Under the pieces are notes generated by a model. That model saw only the letters and a program-made list of their open reading frames with translations. It had not been told where the DNA came from and made no database searches. This document shows, piece by piece, positions 49,601 to 64,000 of a stretch of DNA of 64,000 nucleotides. The position numbers were made by a program, and so were the translations under genes. The first letter of the stretch is position 1. The number at the start of each line of letters is the position of its first letter. The DNA comes from an uncultured Desulfobulbaceae bacterium. Lineage in GTDB: Bacteria > Desulfobacterota > Desulfobulbia > Desulfobulbales > BM004. Where the stretch lies: assembly GCA_945787325.1 (NCBI GenBank), contig CALZHP010000001.1, forward strand, positions 66,214 through 130,213, read 5' to 3'.

Positions 49601-52519
49601 TTAACTGTTTCGCACTCTTGAAAAATCAACCGGAAGCCGAACGACCTTCCCCGCCTTGTTACAGAAAAGCAGATAACGGTTTTTGATACCGTACAGATAT
49701 AAATCCCTTGTGATTTCAACATCTTTACGGCAATAGGTAGTGATGTCGTAAATACGTCCTTCCTTCCACCACTTCAGTGCATCAAGCCCGGTTGCACTTT
49801 TTTTCACTCCCAGTGTATGTTCGACAAGTCTGTCAAGACTCAGCCTGTAACCGAGTCTGTTTTTTATCTCTTCAAGAATGTCTAAGGTCGGAAGTAACGA
49901 AAGGTTAAACCCTGTGTATGCTGACAGGACCTTATTATCAAACCGCTTATTGTTAAATCCTATGACAAGTTCCAGTTGTTGAAGGTGATCAATAAGTGAC
50001 GGTATTTCATTCTCAAGAAAAACATGGTATTTGTCATCACCTGAGTCATAAAGAACAGCTACACTGATACCCATTCTCTCCGCCCGGTGCCAACCACCAA
50101 CTTCAGATGCTGACCGCTGAGTTTCCACATCAAAAACTCCAAAGCGGGCCGGATTAAAGTTTTTAATATTTTTTTGTGTTGATATTACAGGGTGAGGTGA
50201 AGGATGCCATACTGCATCATCTTGTATTACATCAATAAGCATTCCTTCCAATATGCGTTTTGCTGATTCTTTATCAATTGGCCGATTACCAGATCCACAC
50301 TTAGGTGAATGTACGCATGAAGGACATCCTAGTTCGCAGGTACATGAATTAATTGTTTCCAGCGATATCCGCATAAGCTTTTCAATTTTCTCGAAAGCTT
50401 TACGGCATAGTCCTACACCCCCCGTATAGCCGTCATAAATAAAAACAGCCGGCCCGGAAATCTGGGGATGAAAAGGGTGAGCTATGCCGCCGACATCATT
50501 TCTATCGCACATGACCAGGAGCGGAAATATTCCAATGGCAACATGTTCTAACGCATGTATTCCACCCATGAAATGAAATTTCTCACTTTCAATTTTATGC
50601 TGTATGTTCGGTGGAATCTCCAGCCACAACCCTTCCGTTTCAATAATTATAGGCGGCAGATCCAGTTTATGAGTAGACAGTAATTTATGTCCACGAGTCA
50701 AACGCTTTTGATATCCAGTAACTTTTTCTGTAACACGGAGATATCCGAATGAGGCTCTGAAATTAAATAATTGGGTACTTTCATACGTTTTAAGTATTTC
50801 AGTATGTTTTTCACCGATTGGACGCGTAAAATAGTGTGTATCTTTTCTAACGGCTGAAACTGCATGCCCCTCTAGATCAAGGTCTTTAACAAGCCACGTT
50901 TTTCCTCTATGCAAGTAAATTGCACCGGGATGACACTCTTTTATGCACCTATTCCCGTCAATTTCACCAATTACCTGGTCAGTACCATGCTTGTAAATAA
51001 CAAAACTTTGTCCTCCACCACGAAGATTTACTTCGCGGTGTGGATATTTTCGTGTCCCTGTCCAATAACTGCCATCCGCTGTCAATAAAAGGTCGGCACT
51101 GTCCGCCAGATCTTCAACGGATTTCTTTACGGCAAATCCTTTCAACATGGGATCTTTGACATTCAAAGGATGCTCAGAGACTGCACAAATCAGATGCTTT
51201 TTAGCAATTGATTTATTTGCCGGGTTCAGCACCGCATCTTCAACCTGACGTATGAAAAAATCTGTTGGATTTCTCATAAAATACTGATCAAGGCTGTCCT
51301 CCTGGCCAATAAGAACGACAAGCGAATCTCTGAGTTTTCTCCCAACCCTGCCCCCCCGTTGCCATGTAGACATTATCGTACCTGGATATCCAACAAGTAT
51401 ACAGATATCGAGATCCCCTATATCAATCCCCAGTTCGAGAGCACTTGTAGAAACAACACCCAGCAAATCGCCCTCAACAAGCTGTTTTTCTATCTGCCTG
51501 CGCTCTTCGGGAAGATAACCGGCACGATAGGTGCTAAGTGCCTGGGCAAGTTCTCCCAGCCTGCTCTTTGACCACATGGAGACCAATTCGGCAATCTTAC
51601 GTGACTGTGTATAAATAATAGTCCTCAAACCTCGTTTCATCGCTGCTTCAAGTAACAGGCAAGCTGTGTGTGCGGGGCTTTCCAGAGGATTTATAAAAAC
51701 AAAATGTCGGCTTCCAGCGGGAGCTCCTGTTTTTGATATGACATTTACTTTTCGCCCTATAAGTTTCAGGGCCAATTCATCAGGGTTACCAATTGTAGCA
51801 GAAGATAGAATAAAACAAGGATCACTGCCATATAATCTGCATATTCGTAAAAGCCTTCGTAATACCCAGGCCATATGAGTACCGAAAACTCCTCGATATG
51901 TGTGAACTTCATCTATTACTATGAATTTAAGTTGGGCAAAAAAGTGTGCCCAGCTGCTATGATACGCGAGAATGGAAAGGTGCAGCATATCTGGATTGGT
52001 AATTAGTATATGTGGTGGATTCTCCCTTAATTTCTTTCTCTTATATGCTGAAGTATCTCCATCATAAACCGCTGCTTTTGGCTGCAAAGGGGTGTTTATA
52101 AAAGCGGCAAGATCTTCAGCTGATTTAAGCTGGTCTTGGGCCAGGGCTTTGAGAGGAAACAAATAAAGGGCGTGTGAATTATAGTTGTGAAGGATCTGTT
52201 CAAAAACCGGTATATTATAAATTAAGCTTTTCCCGCTTGCTGTAGGAGTTGAAACAATTATATTGTTCCTATGCCTGGCAAGCTCAACAGCCTTAGACTG
52301 ATGGCTGTAGAGGTTTTTAATACCCAAAGATCTGAGTGCGGAAATAAGTTTTTCAGGTAAAGGAGTTTTCGTTTGAAGATATGTCGGATTTTTTTTCTTT
52401 ATGATTTCATGATGTACTATTTGTGTCGCAAAATTAGGTGAATCCTTTAATGCTGAAAGATACTCATTAACTCTAGTATCAGTAAATGAAGGCTGACTTC
52501 TTCGGTTACCTTGCTTCAA
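49601..52519 (-). CDS. MrfA/YprA-type DEAD/DEAH helicase (DUF1998 Zn module) fused to a C-terminal DEDD-type 3'-5' exonuclease (MrfB/YprB-like)
   Basis: Helicase motifs TPTASGKS, IDEVHTY and SSAT. C4 module CTCELGCPSCVHSPKCG. The last ~190 aa carry VFDVET, GFNNKRFDNKVL and YCRKDVEITRDLY (Exo I/II/III-like). Confidence 0.8.
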   Translation of the reverse strand: MKQGNRRSQPSFTDTRVNEYLSALKDSPNFATQIVHHEIIKKKNPTYLQTKTPLPEKLISALRSLGIKNLYSHQSKAVELARHRNNIIVSTPTASGKSLIYNIPVFEQILHNYNSHALYLFPLKALAQDQLKSAEDLAAFINTPLQPKAAVYDGDTSAYKRKKLRENPPHILITNPDMLHLSILAYHSSWAHFFAQLKFIVIDEVHTYRGVFGTHMAWVLRRLLRICRLYGSDPCFILSSATIGNPDELALKLIGRKVNVISKTGAPAGSRHFVFINPLESPAHTACLLLEAAMKRGLRTIIYTQSRKIAELVSMWSKSRLGELAQALSTYRAGYLPEERRQIEKQLVEGDLLGVVSTSALELGIDIGDLDICILVGYPGTIMSTWQRGGRVGRKLRDSLVVLIGQEDSLDQYFMRNPTDFFIRQVEDAVLNPANKSIAKKHLICAVSEHPLNVKDPMLKGFAVKKSVEDLADSADLLLTADGSYWTGTRKYPHREVNLRGGGQSFVIYKHGTDQVIGEIDGNRCIKECHPGAIYLHRGKTWLVKDLDLEGHAVSAVRKDTHYFTRPIGEKHTEILKTYESTQLFNFRASFGYLRVTEKVTGYQKRLTRGHKLLSTHKLDLPPIIIETEGLWLEIPPNIQHKIESEKFHFMGGIHALEHVAIGIFPLLVMCDRNDVGGIAHPFHPQISGPAVFIYDGYTGGVGLCRKAFEKIEKLMRISLETINSCTCELGCPSCVHSPKCGSGNRPIDKESAKRILEGMLIDVIQDDAVWHPSPHPVISTQKNIKNFNPARFGVFDVETQRSASEVGGWHRAERMGISVAVLYDSGDDKYHVFLENEIPSLIDHLQQLELVIGFNNKRFDNKVLSAYTGFNLSLLPTLDILEEIKNRLGYRLSLDRLVEHTLGVKKSATGLDALKWWKEGRIYDITTYCRKDVEITRDLYLYGIKNRYLLFCNKAGKVVRLPVDFSRVRNS

Positions 52520-52812: not shown

Positions 52813-54492
52813 ATGACAATAATAGCAACTCTTGGACCCACAGAATCACCTGCATTTCAAGCTGCACGTCATTTTGACCCTCATGCAGAATTGCAGCTTT
52901 ATCCGCTTATTTCTACAGTTATTAAATCATTTATAAATGGTAATGCGGACTTGGCAGTTATACCTGTTTACAACACCCGTGAAGGAGAAATGAAGGAATA
53001 CTTCAGGGTTATGAAAAACCTTGAGAAAGGATACTGGGTAGATAATGTAGTCCAACCAATTCAACTTTCACTGGGATCTTTGGATGAAAAACAAGATCTA
53101 TCCATGCTTGTCGGTAGAGGAGCTGATTTGCGGCAATGTGAGGAGTTTATTGCAAACAAGTTTCCTGAAATCAATATGATGACCGTCGCAGATGTAGGCA
53201 AAGCAATTGATACAATCAAGGTAAATAGCTTTTACGATCGAGGGATTATTTCAACAGAAGAAGCCCTTAAAAAACATGGCTTTTTTATTAGGGAAAGGGA
53301 AATGGCCCCCCATAACCAAACCCGTTTTGCTGTACTTGGCCCAGAACGTACCAAGCCCACCGGGTACGACGCTACGGCAATGTATACAGTGCCACTCAAG
53401 GATAGAGTTGGACTACTTTATGACATCCTGGGCGAATTTACTAGGCGTGGCATCAGTATTATGGATTTTCGCACCGAAAACGATATCAAAACCCAAGAGT
53501 TGCAAATTTATATTGAGGCTGAAGGACATTGTGACAACGAATCTTTTACTGAGGCCATAGCTTGTATTGAGGATCAGATTATTCAGGAACCTGGAGCTAT
53601 TAAACTACTCGGCAGTTTTCCAAGGGTAGATATGCGCACTAAGAATATCCAATCATTTGGATTTATTGGCACGGGAGACATGAGCAAGTGGTTCGCTGAA
53701 AAATTGAAAAACGAAGGGTACAGTTCACTGATTTCCGGCAGGTCAACTGAACTCTCCCCAGAGGAAATGATTCCACAGGTAGATGTCGTTGCCATTTGTG
53801 TACCTATAAGTGCGACCCCATCAGTTATTGAAAAATACGCACCACTGTTGAAAGACGGACAAGCGCTCGTTCTTTTGGCCGGTGAAGCTGAAAATGCGAT
53901 CAATACTGCTCTTTCAAATACAAGTCACAGTGTAGAAGTAATGCTGGTGCATAATTTATGGGGTCCTCAAGCAATCAACATGAAAGATAAAAATGTTTCA
54001 GTAGTCCGAACTGCACGCAGCGGGATTTTGTGCAGCGAATTTGAGGCATTCATGTACAAACATGGTGCTGATATCAACCATGATACTCCTAAACAGCATG
54101 ACCTGCTCATGGGGGTGGGTCAAAAGCTGCCAACAACAATTTCGATTGCACTTGCAATGACCCTAAGGGACCTCAGCATCCCATATAATGAAATTGGCAG
54201 CCACTCCACGTTAACATCATTATATGGTATATTGGCAATGGCACGGATTCATACTCAGAATCCGAGAACATATGCCGAAATTATTTCAACCATGGGAGAT
54301 GGCAGAAAAATAGTGAAAAGTTTTGCTGAAAATCTTATCACGATCACTGAGTTGGCTAATGAATGTAAAATTGATAAAATTTGTGAAATAATTACGAATA
54401 ATAAAGATTATCTGACACCTGATTTTCTAGATTCCCGCATGCAGCAATCGCTTGCTGTAGATGAAACGCTAGGAAAAGTCATAAGAAGATAG
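52813..54492 (+). CDS. Fusion protein: prephenate dehydratase + ACT domain + prephenate/arogenate dehydrogenase-like domain
   Basis: PDT domain (IATLGPTESPAFQAA, NQTRFAVLG). ACT domain (TAMYTVPLKDRVGLLYDILGEFTRRGISIMDFRTEN). Then a Rossmann FGFIGTGDMSKWFAEKL followed by a TyrA-like helical domain. Confidence 0.75.
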   Translation: MTIIATLGPTESPAFQAARHFDPHAELQLYPLISTVIKSFINGNADLAVIPVYNTREGEMKEYFRVMKNLEKGYWVDNVVQPIQLSLGSLDEKQDLSMLVGRGADLRQCEEFIANKFPEINMMTVADVGKAIDTIKVNSFYDRGIISTEEALKKHGFFIREREMAPHNQTRFAVLGPERTKPTGYDATAMYTVPLKDRVGLLYDILGEFTRRGISIMDFRTENDIKTQELQIYIEAEGHCDNESFTEAIACIEDQIIQEPGAIKLLGSFPRVDMRTKNIQSFGFIGTGDMSKWFAEKLKNEGYSSLISGRSTELSPEEMIPQVDVVAICVPISATPSVIEKYAPLLKDGQALVLLAGEAENAINTALSNTSHSVEVMLVHNLWGPQAINMKDKNVSVVRTARSGILCSEFEAFMYKHGADINHDTPKQHDLLMGVGQKLPTTISIALAMTLRDLSIPYNEIGSHSTLTSLYGILAMARIHTQNPRTYAEIISTMGDGRKIVKSFAENLITITELANECKIDKICEIITNNKDYLTPDFLDSRMQQSLAVDETLGKVIRR

Positions 54493-56802: not shown

Positions 56803-57246
56803 TTAATAATAATTTTCTGAGTTTTCAGATTCCTTTTCCGGTAAATCATCAAGTTCCAGCAAACTCAAACCATCAAACTTTTTAGTCTTGTAGGACTCAA
56901 GTTCTCTGAAGTTGTTAAGTATTGATGCAATTATCTGCAACTGGTCTTTAATTATTAATAGTTTTTCCCTTGTCACTTCCTCCTTTGTACTGGAAAGTAA
57001 CAAATCTACATATCCTAGTATAATTGTGAATGGGCGACTGAATTGAAATACAATTGTCGCTGCCGTCGTCAAAGCACCTTGCAGAAGATGATTATTTATA
57101 TTTCCCCACCCGGGCCTCCTATCTTTTCCGCTTCGCCTATCGGTGCTTTTTCTTCTATCTTCCTTTATTCTTCTATTATAATTTTGACGACGCCTGTCAC
57201 CAGACACAACACTGATACTTTTCTTGTCTATATTGTCTTCCATCAA
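56803..57246 (-). CDS. Hypothetical protein: Arg-rich DRR-repeat N-terminus plus a HisKA/DHp-like helix lacking the phospho-accepting His
   Basis: N-terminus GDRRRQNYNRRIKEDRRKSTDRRSGKDRRPG. Then IVFQFSRPFTIILGYVDLLLSS, which aligns by eye to the H-box pattern (H-E-L-R-x-P-L-x-x-I-x-G-Y-x-x-L-L) without the His. No ATPase domain. Confidence 0.5.
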   Translation of the reverse strand: MMEDNIDKKSISVVSGDRRRQNYNRRIKEDRRKSTDRRSGKDRRPGWGNINNHLLQGALTTAATIVFQFSRPFTIILGYVDLLLSSTKEEVTREKLLIIKDQLQIIASILNNFRELESYKTKKFDGLSLLELDDLPEKESENSENYY

Positions 57247-57899: not shown

Positions 57900-58973
57900 T
57901 CAACAATTAAACTGGAACCCTTTATTGGTAAAAAGATTTAGTGAGGCATCAACAACCTCCGGATCATAAAGACTTCCTCTGTTCCTGGTAATCTCCTCAA
58001 ATGCCTGCTCAATCCCTAGCGCTGCCCTGTATGGGCGATGAGATGACATTGCTTCAACGACATCTGCTACTGCAATTACTCTAGCTTCAAGAAGAATATC
58101 TTTACCTGAAAGCCCATATGGATACCCTGATCCATCTAAGCGCTCATGATGCTGTAATACAATTTCGGCAATAGGCCATTGAAAATCAATCTCTTTTAAT
58201 ATTTCATATCCGGCACGTGGATGACTTTTAATCAGATTGTATTCTACATCGGTGATTTCACCAGGTTTGCTGAGAATTTCAGATGGAATACAAATTTTGC
58301 CAAGATCATGAATAACTCCGGCCATACGTATACCATCCACCTGGTCTTCACTGAGCCCCATTTCCTGCGCAATAGCTCTGGCCAAGTCTGTCGCCCTTCT
58401 CTGATGTCCAGCTGTATACAGATCTCGTGTTTCAATTATCAACGACATTGCCTGGATCGTTCCTGCAAGATTTTGGCGAAGTTTTGCCATTGTTTTTTGT
58501 AATTCTTCACCAGCTTCTATTTTATTTGTAACATCTTTTGAAATTTTAATTACTGCATCAGGGAAACCGTTCTTATCCCGAGACACGACATTAGATGTGC
58601 CTCGCAAATATATTGTTTTTCCGTTTTTTAATTCAACTTTACTCTGATGATTATGGGTTTTTCCATCCATAAAAGTCTGAATTGCTATGCAGGATGAATA
58701 ATTACAAGGTTCACTTCTTCCACAATAGCTTTCATAGCACTTAGTCCCAACTAGATTGTCACCGAACTGTCTCCTAGCTGTTTCATTGACCCAGATTATA
58801 TTTAGATTCCTGTCGACCATGCTCATGTGATCATCAACCGATTCTAGAATAATGTTTAATCTGGACTCGCTCTCCTGAAGCATTAGTTGCGCTACATGTT
58901 TACACCTTAAAAGCTCCTCTCTTAAACTTTTATTCTGATTCAGTAATTCTTGATACGTTAGTTTGCCGGTCAC
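57900..58973 (-). CDS. PAS domain-containing HD-GYP phosphohydrolase
   Basis: N-terminal coiled coil plus a PAS-like domain with Cys residues, then HD-GYP motifs VIHDLGKICIP and QHHERLDGSGYPYGL. Confidence 0.85.
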   Translation of the reverse strand: MTGKLTYQELLNQNKSLREELLRCKHVAQLMLQESESRLNIILESVDDHMSMVDRNLNIIWVNETARRQFGDNLVGTKCYESYCGRSEPCNYSSCIAIQTFMDGKTHNHQSKVELKNGKTIYLRGTSNVVSRDKNGFPDAVIKISKDVTNKIEAGEELQKTMAKLRQNLAGTIQAMSLIIETRDLYTAGHQRRATDLARAIAQEMGLSEDQVDGIRMAGVIHDLGKICIPSEILSKPGEITDVEYNLIKSHPRAGYEILKEIDFQWPIAEIVLQHHERLDGSGYPYGLSGKDILLEARVIAVADVVEAMSSHRPYRAALGIEQAFEEITRNRGSLYDPEVVDASLNLFTNKGFQFNC

Positions 58974-59054: not shown

Positions 59055-60602
59055 CTAAACTTTTTCAATAATTTCAGTTATCGGAAGAGTTGCTATATCA
59101 AGAAATTTGCAATATTTCTGATTGTTTTTTTCAAGCAAATCAACTACTCGAGAAAATGAATTTTTTATAAATATTTTACGGTCGTTCTCTTTTCTATAAA
59201 CACCAAAACGCAAACTATCCCTCTCATTCTGTTCCATTTTGCTGATAACGTTTTTAGTTGTCCAAATGGAACCGTATCTTGCAAAGTCAGACAATCTTCC
59301 AGCATAATTAATCGTGTCACCCAATGCTGTGAACTCAACATTTGATGATGAATGTATTGCTCCAAAAAACTCCTGACCCTCGTTAATTGCAGTATTCAGA
59401 TATATATCGTTCAACCACCCTTTTCTAAGCTTCCAGGCTGCACTGAATTCACGCATCTTATCGCGAAGTTCCAAAGCACAGTTGATTGCATCCATTAAAT
59501 AATTGGAACCTGGTCGTTTTATAAAATAGTAAAGCATACCGTCACCGGAATGCTTTCCATAAATGCCATTATATTTATCAAATGAATTTCCAACTGTTTT
59601 CCAGAGTTCGTTAACAAGCTCAAAATATTCTCCAGGAAGAAGTTCCGAGCTGATTTTCACTGAATCCTGAAGATCAGCTACTAATACACACATAGAATGC
59701 AACGATGGCATTCTTTGTTTGAGGAGCTCGTTAATAATGCTTTCTCTATGAGAAAGCATATTAAGGATTTCATGGTTAAGTTTATCAGTAGGAATAAATA
59801 CGAAGAAAATTCCTTCTCTAAAGGAAAGTGTGTAAATTTGATAAGACTCAGTTTCACCATTACTTAAATCAAACTGTATAGGAATATTATGTACAAGATG
59901 CTGGTCATAGGAAGTAATATTGTTATTTATACCATTAATGAAGCTGATTTCGTTTTCGGAAATACCGTTATATAGTGTTGATATTTTGGTGCGGGTTAAT
60001 TTAGAATGAACAACTTTTAAGTGGGCTTCAACAATGTCTGCCCAATTGTTTATGTGTGAATGAAAATCATAACTGAAAAATAATTTGAAAAGATTTCTAG
60101 AATCGACATCTACAACTGAACTAACTGATTTGTTGAAAACATGTTCTTCCGCTTCCTTGTTTATCCATTCAATTTCAAAATTATGATTAATCAAATACGC
60201 AGGTGATTGAATATCTTCTAAAGTAAGTTTCAAGTTAGAATCCATAGTTCTTCTGGACTTACGGGAATAAACTACAGGTTCTTTTATTGGAGGGGGAACT
60301 TCCTGTCTATCATTCTCAACTTGAGGAGCCTCAGGCACTTCTTTAAAATGCTCCTCAATTTCAGACATGGTCTTGCCTTCTCGTTTTAATCGTTTTACAT
60401 CTTCAATATTTTGCAGAACAATTTCTGGAAAATATCCAATCTGTTTAATGCCTTTTTGATCTGGTCCGGCTTTTTTAACAACAGGCTTAGGAAGAATACC
60501 CATCTTAATGTAATTATTTAATGTCGCTCGTGAGATACCTGTTTTCTTCAGTATCTCCTTACTCGTTAACCAAATGTTACCTGACGAATCTGTCATAGAC
60601 AC
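59055..60602 (-). CDS. MerR-type HTH + PAS-like + class III adenylate cyclase fusion protein
   Basis: HTH LTSKEILKKTGISRATLNNYIKMGILPKP. Cyclase homology domain: metal Asp in VLVADLQDSV, GKHSGDGMLYYF (Lys for purine selection, second metal Asp), and EFTALGDTINYAGRL (Thr at the adenine-pairing position, Asn/Arg transition-state residues). Confidence 0.8.
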   Translation of the reverse strand: MSMTDSSGNIWLTSKEILKKTGISRATLNNYIKMGILPKPVVKKAGPDQKGIKQIGYFPEIVLQNIEDVKRLKREGKTMSEIEEHFKEVPEAPQVENDRQEVPPPIKEPVVYSRKSRRTMDSNLKLTLEDIQSPAYLINHNFEIEWINKEAEEHVFNKSVSSVVDVDSRNLFKLFFSYDFHSHINNWADIVEAHLKVVHSKLTRTKISTLYNGISENEISFINGINNNITSYDQHLVHNIPIQFDLSNGETESYQIYTLSFREGIFFVFIPTDKLNHEILNMLSHRESIINELLKQRMPSLHSMCVLVADLQDSVKISSELLPGEYFELVNELWKTVGNSFDKYNGIYGKHSGDGMLYYFIKRPGSNYLMDAINCALELRDKMREFSAAWKLRKGWLNDIYLNTAINEGQEFFGAIHSSSNVEFTALGDTINYAGRLSDFARYGSIWTTKNVISKMEQNERDSLRFGVYRKENDRKIFIKNSFSRVVDLLEKNNQKYCKFLDIATLPITEIIEKV

Positions 60603-60906: not shown

Positions 60907-63267
60907 TTAAGGTAGGCTGGGCTTGTCCTGTTGGAAAACTACTACGCGAAAAAAGTCTATTAATTTTTTCCTTCGAGAAAATATTTTTATTTGCTCTGGT
61001 ATTAGATCAGACAGTTCATTTCTCATTATAGACATCTTGTACTCTATATGTGCAGCATGCCTGTTATCAAGATACCAGGCATAAAATAGTCCAAGCAGAA
61101 GGCCAGGAGGTGTAAATCCTTCGTTACCATTTACAAGCCTCGTGTACAAATGGTTATTATCAGAGGATCGTAACATTCGAGTCAATTTCAGGTAGGTATC
61201 CAGGTCTTCTTCATTGAAGAAACAATTCCTATTCTCTGGTGGTCTTATTGTTAGCCTAAATACCTTGCCAAGCTCCTCTCCGCCCTGCTCTATTGGGATC
61301 ATTTTTTTCTCATCAGCATAGTTCCCTAAAAGTGATTCTCCCAAAGCAATTAGAAATGCCGTTTCAAAAAGAAATGAATTATCAAGCATATCCTGGCGAA
61401 TCTTAATCATCATATCTTCAGGATCATAGAAAGAATATATATTGTCCCACTTCTGACTACGATTCCAAACTGATTCTTTAATGAGGAAAATACCTTTAAA
61501 GTATTGAAGATGAGATGACAGAATGTCAGGATGATCCCACATTATTTTTGACAGACTTTCTTTAAGAAATGAACAGTTCTCTATTTCATCCGTACAGTTT
61601 TCAGATATATACAGTTCGTCAAGACGTCTGTTAATATCTTCAATTCTACGATTTGGATATTTTCTATCAGACCTGACCTGTGGGCTTTCCTGGTTTAAAG
61701 AAGATGGCAACTTAATAGACCTTTCATCACGCTCTCTCTTGGTTTGCAGGTAACCTTCAGAATAAGACTTTACAGCCCAGAGAGTACGTACTGCCCTGGC
61801 TAGTGAGTCCGGATCATGTTGAACAACCTGACGCTCATCAAGAGCTGATTGAGAAAAGATACCTGCTTCAACAGGTATAAAACCCATATCTGCAACATTA
61901 TCTCTATCAAGATATATCGGTACTTTTTCTTCTATGGCATAACTCTGTAGAATATTGCCTGGAATATCCTGGAGACCAAGCGCAAGAACTTGATGAAATA
62001 GCCCGTGTACACCTCCAGGTATATTGCAATGATAAGCTTTTATAAGATCCGAAACATAAAACCGTCTTGTGGGATCATCGATAACGACATCAGTTTCACC
62101 TTTTTGAACCCATAAGTTTGAAATGAGAATTTTAAGAGCATTTTTGTTATTTCTAATTTCATCAGCAAGACCCTGAACCTGAAGTACCGGAATAGTACTT
62201 GTATAAAGACTCCCGGGAGCAAGGATTATAATATCTGCTTCTTTAATAATAGTTAATACTTCAGGCGGCACAATGGGATCATCAGCAAACTCAACAAAAA
62301 TACGATCAACCGGGTATCCCCGGTGAGCATAACTAGATTTATATTCTCCAGTTACAAGCGTACCATTACTATAAAGTACCTTTAGCCTAGCAGGTGTTGT
62401 TGCGCATGGAAGGACAGCATCCAGGTCAGTTGCAAGCAACTTTGCAACAGCCCGAATACCATTGATTGTAGCAGTATGTAAAATTGAATTTAAGTCTTTA
62501 CTATCTACGGAAATTGAATTTTCATCAATATGTTCGTAAATGGATGCTGCAAGTAACAAATTCCCAAGACAGTGAGAACGGTTTAATACCCGCTGGAGAT
62601 GTTTATCAGTGAAAAGAGATGATATAAGTTTAACTATTATATCTTTTGCCGGAATCGGTAGAAATTGTATGTCAGAACCAACCGCCGCAGATAAAATTTC
62701 ATGGACATCTGCTGGTTTATTTTCGTAACGATAATTAAACAGAGAATAAAATATATCAGCAATTTTTAATGTTTCATTTTTATTAACTGAATATTTGGCC
62801 TGAAGTTTTCTTTCTTGAATTGATGATAAAAGCACATGCCTTATATCACCAAGTGCGATAAGAGGAATATCTTTTAAAAGTTCACCAGTAGAACCACCAT
62901 CATCTGTTATACAGACGATAGATTTTGTTTTCGGAAATAATCTCTTAAGACCGTTAAAAGGATGAAGCGGCCAACCAACTCTTCTGCTATCACCACCGAT
63001 CACATTGGAAAGACCGGAGCCACCCCCAAAAACAACCACATTCAAATTTAATGTATCGATATTTGAAATGCAGGAGCTTAACTCTTTCAAGCCGAAAGCA
63101 ACATCACTATTTATACCTGGAGGGGGTCCTGAGAGGTCAAGTTCAATTAGCTTTTCGACCAGGTCATGATGAGGTAACAAGTCCAAAGGAGTTAACATTG
63201 TATTGGCAAGTTTCTTTATGCAAGACCTCATTGCCTCTGTTGTTTCTACATTTTTGTCAATTACCAT
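60907..63267 (-). CDS. Large CofD/YvcK-family (UPF0052) protein with insertions and an uncharacterised ~300-aa C-terminal domain
   Basis: 786 aa. Family motifs VVFGGGSGLSNVIGG, ITDDGGSTGELLKDIPLIALGDIRH, ILAPGSLYTSTIPVLQV and LWVQKGETD. Nothing recognisable after about residue 480. Confidence 0.75.
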   Translation of the reverse strand: MVIDKNVETTEAMRSCIKKLANTMLTPLDLLPHHDLVEKLIELDLSGPPPGINSDVAFGLKELSSCISNIDTLNLNVVVFGGGSGLSNVIGGDSRRVGWPLHPFNGLKRLFPKTKSIVCITDDGGSTGELLKDIPLIALGDIRHVLLSSIQERKLQAKYSVNKNETLKIADIFYSLFNYRYENKPADVHEILSAAVGSDIQFLPIPAKDIIVKLISSLFTDKHLQRVLNRSHCLGNLLLAASIYEHIDENSISVDSKDLNSILHTATINGIRAVAKLLATDLDAVLPCATTPARLKVLYSNGTLVTGEYKSSYAHRGYPVDRIFVEFADDPIVPPEVLTIIKEADIIILAPGSLYTSTIPVLQVQGLADEIRNNKNALKILISNLWVQKGETDVVIDDPTRRFYVSDLIKAYHCNIPGGVHGLFHQVLALGLQDIPGNILQSYAIEEKVPIYLDRDNVADMGFIPVEAGIFSQSALDERQVVQHDPDSLARAVRTLWAVKSYSEGYLQTKRERDERSIKLPSSLNQESPQVRSDRKYPNRRIEDINRRLDELYISENCTDEIENCSFLKESLSKIMWDHPDILSSHLQYFKGIFLIKESVWNRSQKWDNIYSFYDPEDMMIKIRQDMLDNSFLFETAFLIALGESLLGNYADEKKMIPIEQGGEELGKVFRLTIRPPENRNCFFNEEDLDTYLKLTRMLRSSDNNHLYTRLVNGNEGFTPPGLLLGLFYAWYLDNRHAAHIEYKMSIMRNELSDLIPEQIKIFSRRKKLIDFFRVVVFQQDKPSLP

Positions 63268-63300: not shown

Positions 63301-63324
63301 TATACTGTCTATCTAGACAGTATA
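63301..63324. promoter_or_regulatory. 24-bp near-perfect palindrome TATACTGTCTA-TC-TAGACAGTATA
   Basis: 11-bp arms at 63301-63311 and 63314-63324, in the 68-nt gap between the mdh stop and the CofD-like start. Confidence 0.4.
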
Positions 63325-63335
63325 TTGCGAAAAGA

Positions 63336-64000
63336 TTAAAGGCCGGTGGCGGTCATTTGTTCTTTTACCGCTTCAACAGATTTAGCAAGAAACTTTATCT
63401 CATCATCGTTTAATTCAAACTCCAGAATTCTTTCAACTCCACCTGAGCCGAGTACAACCGGTGCACCAAGAAAGCATCCTGAAATGCCAAACTCCCCTTC
63501 CAGATATACGGCACAAGGTAATACTCTTTTGCTATCGGTTAAAATCGCTTCTGCCATTTCTATCGCAGACAGTCCTGGTGTATAAAAAGCACTCCCTGTT
63601 TTTAGATGATTTACAATTTCAATACCGCCGTGCTGTGTTCGATTTACAACCTCATCAATCTTCTCAGGTGAAAGAAGATCCGTAATCGGCACCCCTGATA
63701 CATTCGCCAGACGAACAAGCGGCAGCATGTTATCACCATGTATTCCCATTACCATGGCATTTATATCTCTTGGAGCAACGCCAATAGCCTCGGCCAGAAA
63801 CGTACGGTAGCGGGCAGAATCCAGAACACCTGCCATGCCAATCACCCTATTCCTTGGTAAACCTGAAACTTTGAAAGCGGTATAAACCATGGCATCAATA
63901 GGATTAGTTACAACAATTATAGTACAATCCGGTGAATGCTTAACAACTTCCTCTGAGCAGGATTTTACAATTTCAACATTTTTCGCTAGAAGATCATCTC
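63336..64000 (-). CDS. mdh: Malate dehydrogenase (LDH-like type), partial (5' end beyond the window)
   Basis: The frame is open to position 64000. It reads ...DDLLAKNVEIVKSCSEEVVKHSPDCTIIVVTNPIDAMVYTAFKVSGLPRNRVIGMAGVLDSARYRTFLAEAIGV...IHGDNMLPL. Confidence 0.9.
   Translation of the reverse strand, partial: DDLLAKNVEIVKSCSEEVVKHSPDCTIIVVTNPIDAMVYTAFKVSGLPRNRVIGMAGVLDSARYRTFLAEAIGVAPRDINAMVMGIHGDNMLPLVRLANVSGVPITDLLSPEKIDEVVNRTQHGGIEIVNHLKTGSAFYTPGLSAIEMAEAILTDSKRVLPCAVYLEGEFGISGCFLGAPVVLGSGGVERILEFELNDDEIKFLAKSVEAVKEQMTATGL

Follow-up and report, generated by a model that had tools for sequence, protein, structure and literature searches.

Overview of the locus

The stretch of DNA analysed here (the window) comprises 64,000 nucleotides (nt) of contig CALZHP010000001.1 from an uncultured Desulfobulbaceae bacterium (assembly GCA_945787325.1), and it carries on the minus strand a complete open reading frame (ORF) for a protein of 786 amino acids (aa) of the CofD/YvcK superfamily, which we call the long form. 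This protein is an uncharacterised relative of YvcK/GlmR with a new domain rather than a new kind of system, and no striking phenotype is linked to it. The ORF starts with an ATG at 63265-63267 and has a GC content of 37.6% versus 39.6% for the window. A sequence-only reading had noted a set of core motifs in the protein, all of which are present: GGGSGLSNVIGG (aa 81-92), DDGGSTGELL...GDIRH, APGSLYTSTIP and KGETD. The product is predicted to be soluble, with zero transmembrane segments. Based on structure matches, on alignments of homologues (A1 with 30 sequences, A4 with 17 cross-phylum sequences, and A3) and on an AlphaFold2 (AF2) model, the ORF and its parts are as follows:

60907..63267, minus strand: complete ORF of the long-form YvcK/GlmR-like protein, 786 aa plus stop codon (ORF listing, homologues, AF2 model)
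63043..63267, minus strand: N-terminal helical extension, aa 1-75, with the motif PLDxLPxxxLAEKLIxLxLxGPP (outside the Pfam and PDB matches, helical in the AF2 model)
62815..63042, minus strand: YvcK-type core, first part, aa 76-151, with the GGG(S/T)G loop, TDDGGSTG (Asp122-Asp123) and GDIRH (aligns to residues 5-66 of 2hzb/2o2z)
62464..62814, minus strand: enlarged helical insertion, aa 152-268 (unaligned to YvcK structures, gapped against Escherichia coli YbhK, seven helices predicted)
61777..62463, minus strand: YvcK-type core, second part, aa 269-497, with APGSLYTS, NLWVQKGETD, Y443 and Q483-H484 (aligns to residues 107-310 of 2hzb)
61573..61776, minus strand: variable hydrophilic linker, aa 498-565 (indel-rich and poorly conserved in both alignments; grand average of hydropathy -1.39)
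60910..61572, minus strand: conserved C-terminal alpha/beta domain, aa 566-786 (alignments A1, A3 and A4; AF2 model)

The superfamily assigned by the sequence-only reading is confirmed by Pfam, NCBIfam, PDB alignment and Foldseek alike. PF01933 (CofD) is the sole Pfam domain of the protein (aa 77-467, 161 bits versus a cut-off of 30), and a search of PDB sequences aligns aa 76-151 and aa 269-493 to the YvcK-type structures 2hzb and 2o2z. The same structure alignment bears out the N-terminal extension of ~70 aa and the insertions that had been proposed, with an extension of ~75 aa and an insertion spanning aa 152-268; neither segment has a single Pfam match, even at E ≤ 10. Where the long form has aa 152-268, YvcK of Bacillus halodurans has ~40 residues and YbhK of E. 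coli ~35; this lid insertion is larger by ~75 residues than in YvcK. It includes a conserved HCLGNLLL stretch (aa 232-239), and further, smaller insertions sit inside the core. Four residues of the N-terminal extension (D29, E38, K39 and G47) are invariant among Desulfobulbia. The extension is missing in the divergent members P0151 and P0183, and the minimal architecture therefore consists of the core, the enlarged insertion, the linker and the tail domain. The full-length AF2 model reaches a predicted local distance difference test score (pLDDT) of 85.3 and a predicted template modelling score (pTM) of 0.88, which is high for a chain of 786 residues; for this reason we predict that the N-terminal extension, the insertion and the C-terminal domain pack together with the core into a single compact particle.

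The long form is a recurrent and genuine architecture

More than 120 homologues of full length (750-806 aa, 50-58% identity over 96-100% of the query) came up in a database search, mostly from metagenome-assembled genomes (MAGs) of Desulfobacterota/Thermodesulfobacteriota, where the sources name them 'YvcK family protein' or 'CofD family protein'. With a profile built from the tail only, relatives were found in 352 of 185,579 species genomes (one genome per species), and the best 80 of these 352 carriers are Desulfobulbia, plus some Thermodesulfobacteria MAGs. Cultured strains are among the carriers (Desulfobulbus elongatus DSM 2908, D. rhabdoformis DSM 8777 and Desulfogranum japonicum DSM 18378), as are Ca. 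Electrothrix and Desulfocapsa, and divergent members with 33-44% identity come from MAGs labelled Kiritimatiellia, Opitutae, Spartobacteria and Planctomycetota. Mean column identity over the 30 members of A1 is 59%. The sequence-only reading had raised the concern that two ORFs might have been fused artificially; the homologues of full length and the species genomes, cultured strains included, exclude this, and the long-form gene is genuine and selectively maintained.

The core is of the YvcK/GlmR type

The top NCBIfam match of the long form is YvcK (TIGR01826), whereas it scores only 36 bits against the GAK-system CofD-like family (TIGR04357, cut-off 340) and 15.7 bits against CofD (TIGR01819, equivalog cut-off 257). 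Foldseek comparison of the AF2 model gives a template modelling (TM) score of 0.87 (target-normalised) with B. halodurans YvcK (2o2z) at 26% identity, versus 0.49-0.59 with FbiA and CofD structures at 10-15% identity. The core is of the YvcK/GlmR type, not of the CofD/FbiA type, and the long forms are a distinct clade scoring below the NCBIfam cut-off for YvcK. The core fold is that of YvcK/GlmR of B. subtilis and Listeria monocytogenes (2o2z and 2hzb being B. halodurans BH3568) and of E. coli YbhK, and the long form has in common with YvcK/GlmR the motifs GGGxG, DDGG, GDxR, PGSxYTS and N...Q.GETD, the catalytic Asp-Asp pair and three of the four dinucleotide/UDP-sugar contacts. It differs from these single-domain proteins of ~300-330 aa in its length, adding the N-terminal extension, the doubled insertion, the linker and the new domain of 220 aa, and in the replacement of two functional residues, an Arg by Gln/His and an Asn by Val/Ile.

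With CofD/FbiA (2-phospho-L-lactate or phosphoenolpyruvate transferase of F420 synthesis; 3c3d, 6uvx), whose superfamily chemistry is nucleotide-activated phosphotransfer, the long form shares PF01933 and a Rossmann-like core; yet it matches these proteins weakly, and no F420 genes (cofC, cofE, cofG or cofH type) lie in the neighbourhoods examined. The GAK-system CofD-like protein is likewise a non-F420 offshoot of the CofD superfamily, but the long form stays far under its cut-off, has no PADLOC match and differs in architecture and context.

We mapped functional residues through the PDB-search alignment and checked the numbering with K296 of B. subtilis, which is Gln in B. halodurans (PMC13046274). 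Residues invariant across phyla are G81-G83, G85, T121, D122, D123, G124, G140, D141 and R143 in the first part of the core, and P351-G352-S353, N384, G390-E391-T392-D393 and Y443 in the second. D122 and D123 are the counterparts of D40/D41 in L. monocytogenes and D38/D39 in B. subtilis (via D37/D38 in B. halodurans), the consecutive Asp pair needed for uridylyltransferase activity (PMC10128056, PMC13046274), and are invariant in the 30 close and the 17 cross-phylum sequences. NAD/UDP-sugar contacts in B. halodurans YvcK involve Thr13, Asn217, Tyr264 and Arg300 (PMC5482804), of which the first three align to S/T84, N384 and Y443; at position 84, at least 90% of the Desulfobulbia set has T and the window protein S, with more variation outside Desulfobulbia. 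Q295, R300 and A303 of B. halodurans align to E478, Q483 and P486, and the regulatory/feedback sites in the tail of B. subtilis GlmR are K296, R301 and T304 (PMC13046274). Because the Asp pair and these contacts are kept while R300 and Listeria N198 are replaced, the catalytic centre looks intact and the product/feedback site altered.

The C-terminal domain is an orphan

The sequence-only reading had left a C-terminal part of ~300 aa unassigned. The tail is indeed without a known match, but it begins later than had been supposed, as YvcK homology extends ~20 residues further (to ~aa 493-497), and it is divided into a linker of ~65 aa and a domain of ~220 aa. Model confidence along the linker is lowest at aa 501-520 (pLDDT ~60), 69-75 at aa 551-570 and 83-91 between. 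When the tail (aa 500-786) is modelled alone, pLDDT is 82.5 and pTM 0.80. The secondary-structure order that the full-length model predicts for the domain is alpha-beta-beta(-beta)-alpha-beta-beta-alpha. Its conserved motifs are WxRSQxWDN, ALG(Q/E)SLLGNY, EGFTPPGLLFGLxYAWYLDNR, IEYKM and DLIPEQ.

No known domain emerged for this region in any of our searches. The tail matches zero Pfam families at E ≤ 10, and 21 tails run singly against Pfam gave nothing recurrent, only noise matches of single members; PADLOC defence models do not match the long-form protein; the tail profile finds nothing significant among PDB sequences (best E 1.2); and Foldseek of the tail model against PDB and BFVD yields no match at E ≤ 1e-3. 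Weak fold matches are with anthrax lethal factor, PPEP-1, selecase and deuterolysin in PDB and with IrrE-like, SprT-like and M34 peptidases in BFVD, with TM scores of 0.16-0.48 and root-mean-square deviations of 4-20 Å overall and, for the best of them, E values of 0.056-0.6 and TM scores of 0.2-0.48, and the putative metallopeptidase family DUF4344 of Pfam matches the tail of one member at E 0.13. Neither HExxH nor HxxEH is present in the domain. LAGLIDADG endonuclease folds also appear, scattered and with TM scores of 0.15-0.2 and probabilities of at most 0.16; Pfam gives no WhiA or LAGLIDADG match to the tail at E ≤ 10, and WhiA structures fall outside the top 50 PDB matches. These recurring zincin-like and LAGLIDADG matches of the model are at most a hint about topology; we did not accept them as relationships, given TM scores under 0.5 and the lack of a supporting motif.

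The domain, which forms ~100 clusters at 50% identity, is confined to the long-form CofD/YvcK architecture, and most of its carriers are sulfate reducers of the Desulfobulbia. An exhaustive HMMER search of 1.84 billion representative proteins with the tail profile gave 103 matches, and those longer than ~620 aa all carry the domain at the C-terminus behind a CofD core. We inspected five short matches as candidates for a stand-alone domain and found them all to be fragments: the starts of P0123 and P0129 lie in the last part of the core, those of P0121, P0132 and P0139 in the linker or the tail domain. Giant repeat proteins considered as tail relatives, P0212 (4037 aa), P0213 (2829 aa) and P0222 (940 aa), were rejected as spurious, sharing only a short Ig-like repeat motif of the 'GLTYQWYVKN' type. 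It is because the matches longer than ~620 aa have the domain behind a CofD core, the short ones inspected are fragments and the giant proteins are spurious that we describe the domain as an orphan of a single architecture. The three repeat proteins match tail-profile positions 159-189 repeatedly, and the Ig-like motif of P0222, 'GLTYQWYVKNKTA', resembles GLxYAWYLDNR by chance.

Residues of the tail that are invariant across phyla are mostly structural (Gly, Leu, Trp, Pro, Phe); the polar ones are H586, R603, D734 and R774, and D608 is close to invariant. Desulfobulbia tails also have H579 and D581 as invariant residues, but these two are lost outside Desulfobulbia, which speaks against an obvious metal-dependent active site.

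Gene neighbourhood

The following features flank the long-form gene in the window:

63336..64000, minus strand: upstream gene mdh (malate dehydrogenase), truncated to its 3' part where the window ends (the fragment of 184 aa scores 255 bits against TIGR01763)
63301..63324, minus strand: palindrome TATACTGTCTA-GA-TAGACAGTATA, with 11-bp arms and a 2-nt centre, in the 68-nt spacer between mdh and the ORF
59055..60602, minus strand: MerR-type helix-turn-helix (HTH) and class III nucleotide cyclase protein, 515 aa, the downstream neighbour (Pfam Guanylate_cyc and MerR_1; 304 nt from the long form)
57900-58973, minus strand: next gene after that of the cyclase, for a protein with PAS and HD-GYP (HD_5) domains that probably acts as a c-di-GMP phosphodiesterase

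The upstream gene is a true malate dehydrogenase, as the sequence-only reading had it: its stop codon (63336-63338) lies 68 nt from the ATG of the long form, and a full-length orthologue in locus L002 scores 447 bits against TIGR01763 (cut-off 352). To compare contexts, neighbour proteins were run by tblastn against 85 loci, and eight annotated neighbourhoods of ~±9-10 kb each were inspected. Most Desulfobulbia loci have the gene order DegT-type aminotransferase, divergent RsmJ-like methyltransferase, kdsB, mdh and long CofD-like gene, and in most of 80 genome loci kdsB is followed, mostly via mdh, by the long form. In ~15 Desulfobulbus-type loci mdh is absent and kdsB lies directly upstream; the constant upstream neighbour is therefore kdsB (CMP-Kdo synthetase), and mdh, considered as the functional partner, was rejected as that constant neighbour. 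The kdsB product is a true KdsB (TIGR00466, 249 bits versus a cut-off of 155). A mimic of the F420 logic, with kdsB, mdh and the CofD-like gene standing for CofC, lactate and CofD, was also rejected, both neighbours passing the equivalog cut-offs of housekeeping enzymes. Since the spacers upstream of the long-form gene are short (mostly 5-70 nt in ~70 loci), the arrangement is consistent with co-transcription with kdsB and usually mdh in Desulfobulbia. This differs from yvcK, which is linked with yvcJ/rapZ and, in Firmicutes, with whiA (PMC7525490): in the loci examined the long form follows kdsB, usually with mdh between, and is not beside those genes.

Outside the kdsB synteny, the long form adjoins genes for an NDP-sugar epimerase/dehydratase and a glucokinase in one locus, a GT4 glycosyltransferase and a sucrose-phosphorylase-like GH13 in another, a GH13 gene 5 nt upstream in one, and a NUDIX hydrolase in yet another. 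A shared GH13 partner was discarded, as the GH13s of L005 and L087 differ in subfamily, one being sucrose-phosphorylase-like and one cyclomaltodextrinase-like. These sugar and nucleotide-sugar neighbours fit YvcK/GlmR biology as circumstantial evidence, and none of them is conserved across phyla.

Downstream genes vary by lineage, with the MerR-HTH/cyclase gene in the sub-clade of the window and prmA or histidine kinases elsewhere. The cyclase protein of the window, which has no NCBIfam family match, shares 54% identity along its whole length with the product of the gene downstream of P0013 in L001, and by tblastn this gene lies downstream of the long form in 10 loci besides L001 (L009-L011, L013, L017, L023, L037 and L055 among them). 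Together with the PAS/HD-GYP gene it makes up a small second-messenger signalling cluster beside the long form. The gene prmA (ribosomal protein L11 methyltransferase) is directly downstream in L002 (12290-13198, 18 nt gap), L007, L014, L016, L026, L070 and L074, and in one MAG the long CofD and prmA are called as one apparent fusion protein (P0057, 1058 aa).

The 24-bp palindrome that had been noted in the gap after mdh is there, as 11+2+11 bp, and has no second copy in the window (chance expectation 0). As RNA it would form a 10-bp stem with a 4-nt loop, the surrounding 86 nt having a minimum free energy (MFE) of -15.3 kcal/mol (z -2.2). The stem is not followed by a U-tract, and no terminator-like or promoter-like site is called on the minus strand in the gap between mdh and the ORF. 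We rejected the palindrome as a conserved regulatory site, the spacers of related loci being unrelated in sequence and only some having hairpins. In L007, L029, L051, L076 and L084 the spacer between mdh and the long CofD gene holds a strongly structured insert of 159-315 nt (predicted MFE -53 to -94 kcal/mol), which may represent a mobile repeat or a regulatory RNA, and L070 shows a gap of 867 nt together with a shortened CofD match.

Proposed function and alternatives

In Gram-positive bacteria, YvcK/GlmR is a well-studied control point in the supply of cell-wall precursors, and its mechanism is debated between a regulator of GlmS and an accessory uridylyltransferase. We propose, with a probability of about one half, that the long form acts on nucleotide-sugars in the manner of YvcK/GlmR, as an enzyme or a regulator that serves the supply of envelope precursors, and that the appended domain takes over regulation or the recognition of a partner or substrate. 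The core would bind a nucleotide-diphospho-sugar, or a nucleoside triphosphate and a sugar-phosphate, in the canonical pocket, and nucleotidyl or phospho transfer would then feed or tune the pools of envelope sugar precursors; we propose this because the loops that bind phosphate and nucleotide are preserved in the core, as is the Asp pair required by GlmR to make UDP-N-acetylglucosamine (UDP-GlcNAc) from UTP and GlcNAc-1-P. The C-terminal domain would replace the regulatory and recognition roles that the short YvcK gives to its tail and to separate YvcJ/RapZ and GlmS, since it is attached at the feedback/regulatory tail of GlmR (K296, R301, T304) and the feedback Arg is changed to Gln/His. 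It is from these features that we infer the ligand, catalysis and the regulatory role of the tail. The clade would then offer a natural experiment, with the catalytic core kept and the feedback Arg and regulatory tail replaced by a dedicated domain, and its study could show how a YvcK core is controlled and what role it has in diderm bacteria. The tail also defines a clean, lineage-restricted orphan domain that suits a new Pfam entry and structural work.

Several observations weigh against this proposal. The match to YvcK TIGR01826 amounts to 129 bits, under the curated cut-off of 196, and four other long forms score 97-135 bits, compared with 356 bits for E. coli YbhK as a control. The equivalent of R300/301 is Q483, and is Q or H throughout the long-form family; loss of R301 in B. 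subtilis nearly abolishes binding of UDP-GlcNAc. Listeria N198, which belongs to a catalytic triple that has been mutated (N195 in the LPNL of B. halodurans), aligns to V361, with Ile in the family consensus. The kdsB/mdh synteny may be a gene order inherited within one class rather than a functional link, because both are housekeeping genes at 75-89% identity, and it is not kept in members from the PVC (Planctomycetes-Verrucomicrobia-Chlamydiae) phyla. Neither yvcJ/rapZ nor whiA neighbours were seen in the eight annotated neighbourhoods. The modelled packing of the domains depends on pTM only, and we found no published description or biochemistry of any long-form member in the literature searched.

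We regard it as rather unlikely that the long form is instead a CofD-style phosphotransferase, in which a nucleotide-activated donor, perhaps made by the neighbouring cytidylyltransferase, would pass a phospho-alcohol or phospho-sugar on to a large acceptor held by the enlarged lid and the C-terminal domain, to give a lineage-specific phosphodiester-linked envelope or cofactor molecule. This would match the founding chemistry of the superfamily (CofD/FbiA, by structural homology) and would suit an insertion that is doubled in size at the cap-region site, the loss of the Arg that binds UDP-GlcNAc, a hint that the ligand is another one, the presence of a nucleotidyltransferase gene (kdsB) as the constant upstream neighbour, and the invariant or near-invariant polar residues H586, R603, D734, R774 and D608 of the tail. 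Yet the core is much nearer to YvcK than to CofD (TM 0.87 versus 0.5-0.59; TIGR01819 at 15.7 bits), the adjacent cytidylyltransferase is an ordinary KdsB above its equivalog cut-off and not CofC-like, and a conserved candidate for an acceptor pathway is absent from the neighbourhoods examined. The opposite idea, a non-catalytic sensor or adaptor whose core binds a nucleotide-sugar as a signal and whose C-terminal interaction module relays it to a target such as GlmS, so that one chain fuses what Bacillus does with GlmR and its partners, seems to us unlikely: GlmR of B. subtilis, which acts partly via UDP-GlcNAc-dependent interactions with GlmS and YvcJ (PMC7525490), provides a precedent, the mostly structural invariants of the tail and the loss of H579/D581 leave no clear catalytic site, and signalling genes (cyclase, PAS/HD-GYP, histidine kinases) lie downstream in several lineages, but neither the Asp-Asp pair nor the GETD and PGS loops vary from phylum to phylum, a degree of conservation more typical of a retained active site, and catalysis is reported to be essential for GlmR function (PMC13046274).

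Two further readings concern the C-terminal domain itself. It could be a new fold that gives the YvcK-like core a second function, serving as an in-built allosteric switch or else for catalysis or acceptor binding at a second site. The long form would then carry out by itself an as yet undescribed step of envelope biogenesis (linked to Kdo/lipopolysaccharide), on nucleotide-sugars or phosphodiesters, that Desulfobulbia including cable bacteria, some Thermodesulfobacteria and PVC-group members would share; we hold this to be quite doubtful. More improbable still is a degenerate known fold, either a zincin-like pseudo-peptidase or a LAGLIDADG/WhiA-like module, the latter amounting to a Rosetta-stone fusion of the yvcK-whiA gene pair of Firmicutes. 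Such a fold, which would be compatible with the other readings, is suggested by the zincin-like matches that recur in PDB, BFVD and Pfam (DUF4344), by the scattered LAGLIDADG matches and by a secondary-structure order that suits either, and is opposed by the low quality of all these matches, none reaching E ≤ 1e-3, by the missing HExxH or HxxEH and by the lack of WhiA or LAGLIDADG matches in Pfam and among the top PDB structures. The unusual length of the protein and the generic 'CofD family' name in some sources might finally have pointed to an assembly or frameshift fusion, or to a true CofD of the F420 pathway. Both are effectively refuted, as hundreds of assemblies independent of each other, and cultured strains too, show the same architecture, the tail is never found alone (the short matches inspected being fragments), and the score against CofD is 15.7 bits for a cut-off of 257 with F420 genes missing from the neighbourhoods examined.

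Other genes of the window

Downstream of the signalling cluster, an ORF of 147 aa (56803-57246, minus strand) has an N-terminal half of Arg-rich DRR/RRx repeats (SGDRRRQNYNRRIKEDRRKSTDRRSGKDRRPG) followed by a partial HisKA-like segment below the Pfam cut-off, and may be a truncated or unusual sensor fragment. A DEAD-box helicase of 972 aa (49601-52519, minus strand) contains an MrfA Zn-binding domain and an HRQ1-type winged helix, and its C-terminus weakly matches 3'-5' exonucleases; it resembles a repair helicase of the MrfA kind to which an exonuclease-like end has been fused. Between these two, a protein of 559 aa encoded on the plus strand (52813-54492) combines prephenate dehydratase (PDT) with the C-terminal domain of prephenate dehydrogenase, and appears to be a bifunctional enzyme of the Phe/Tyr branch.

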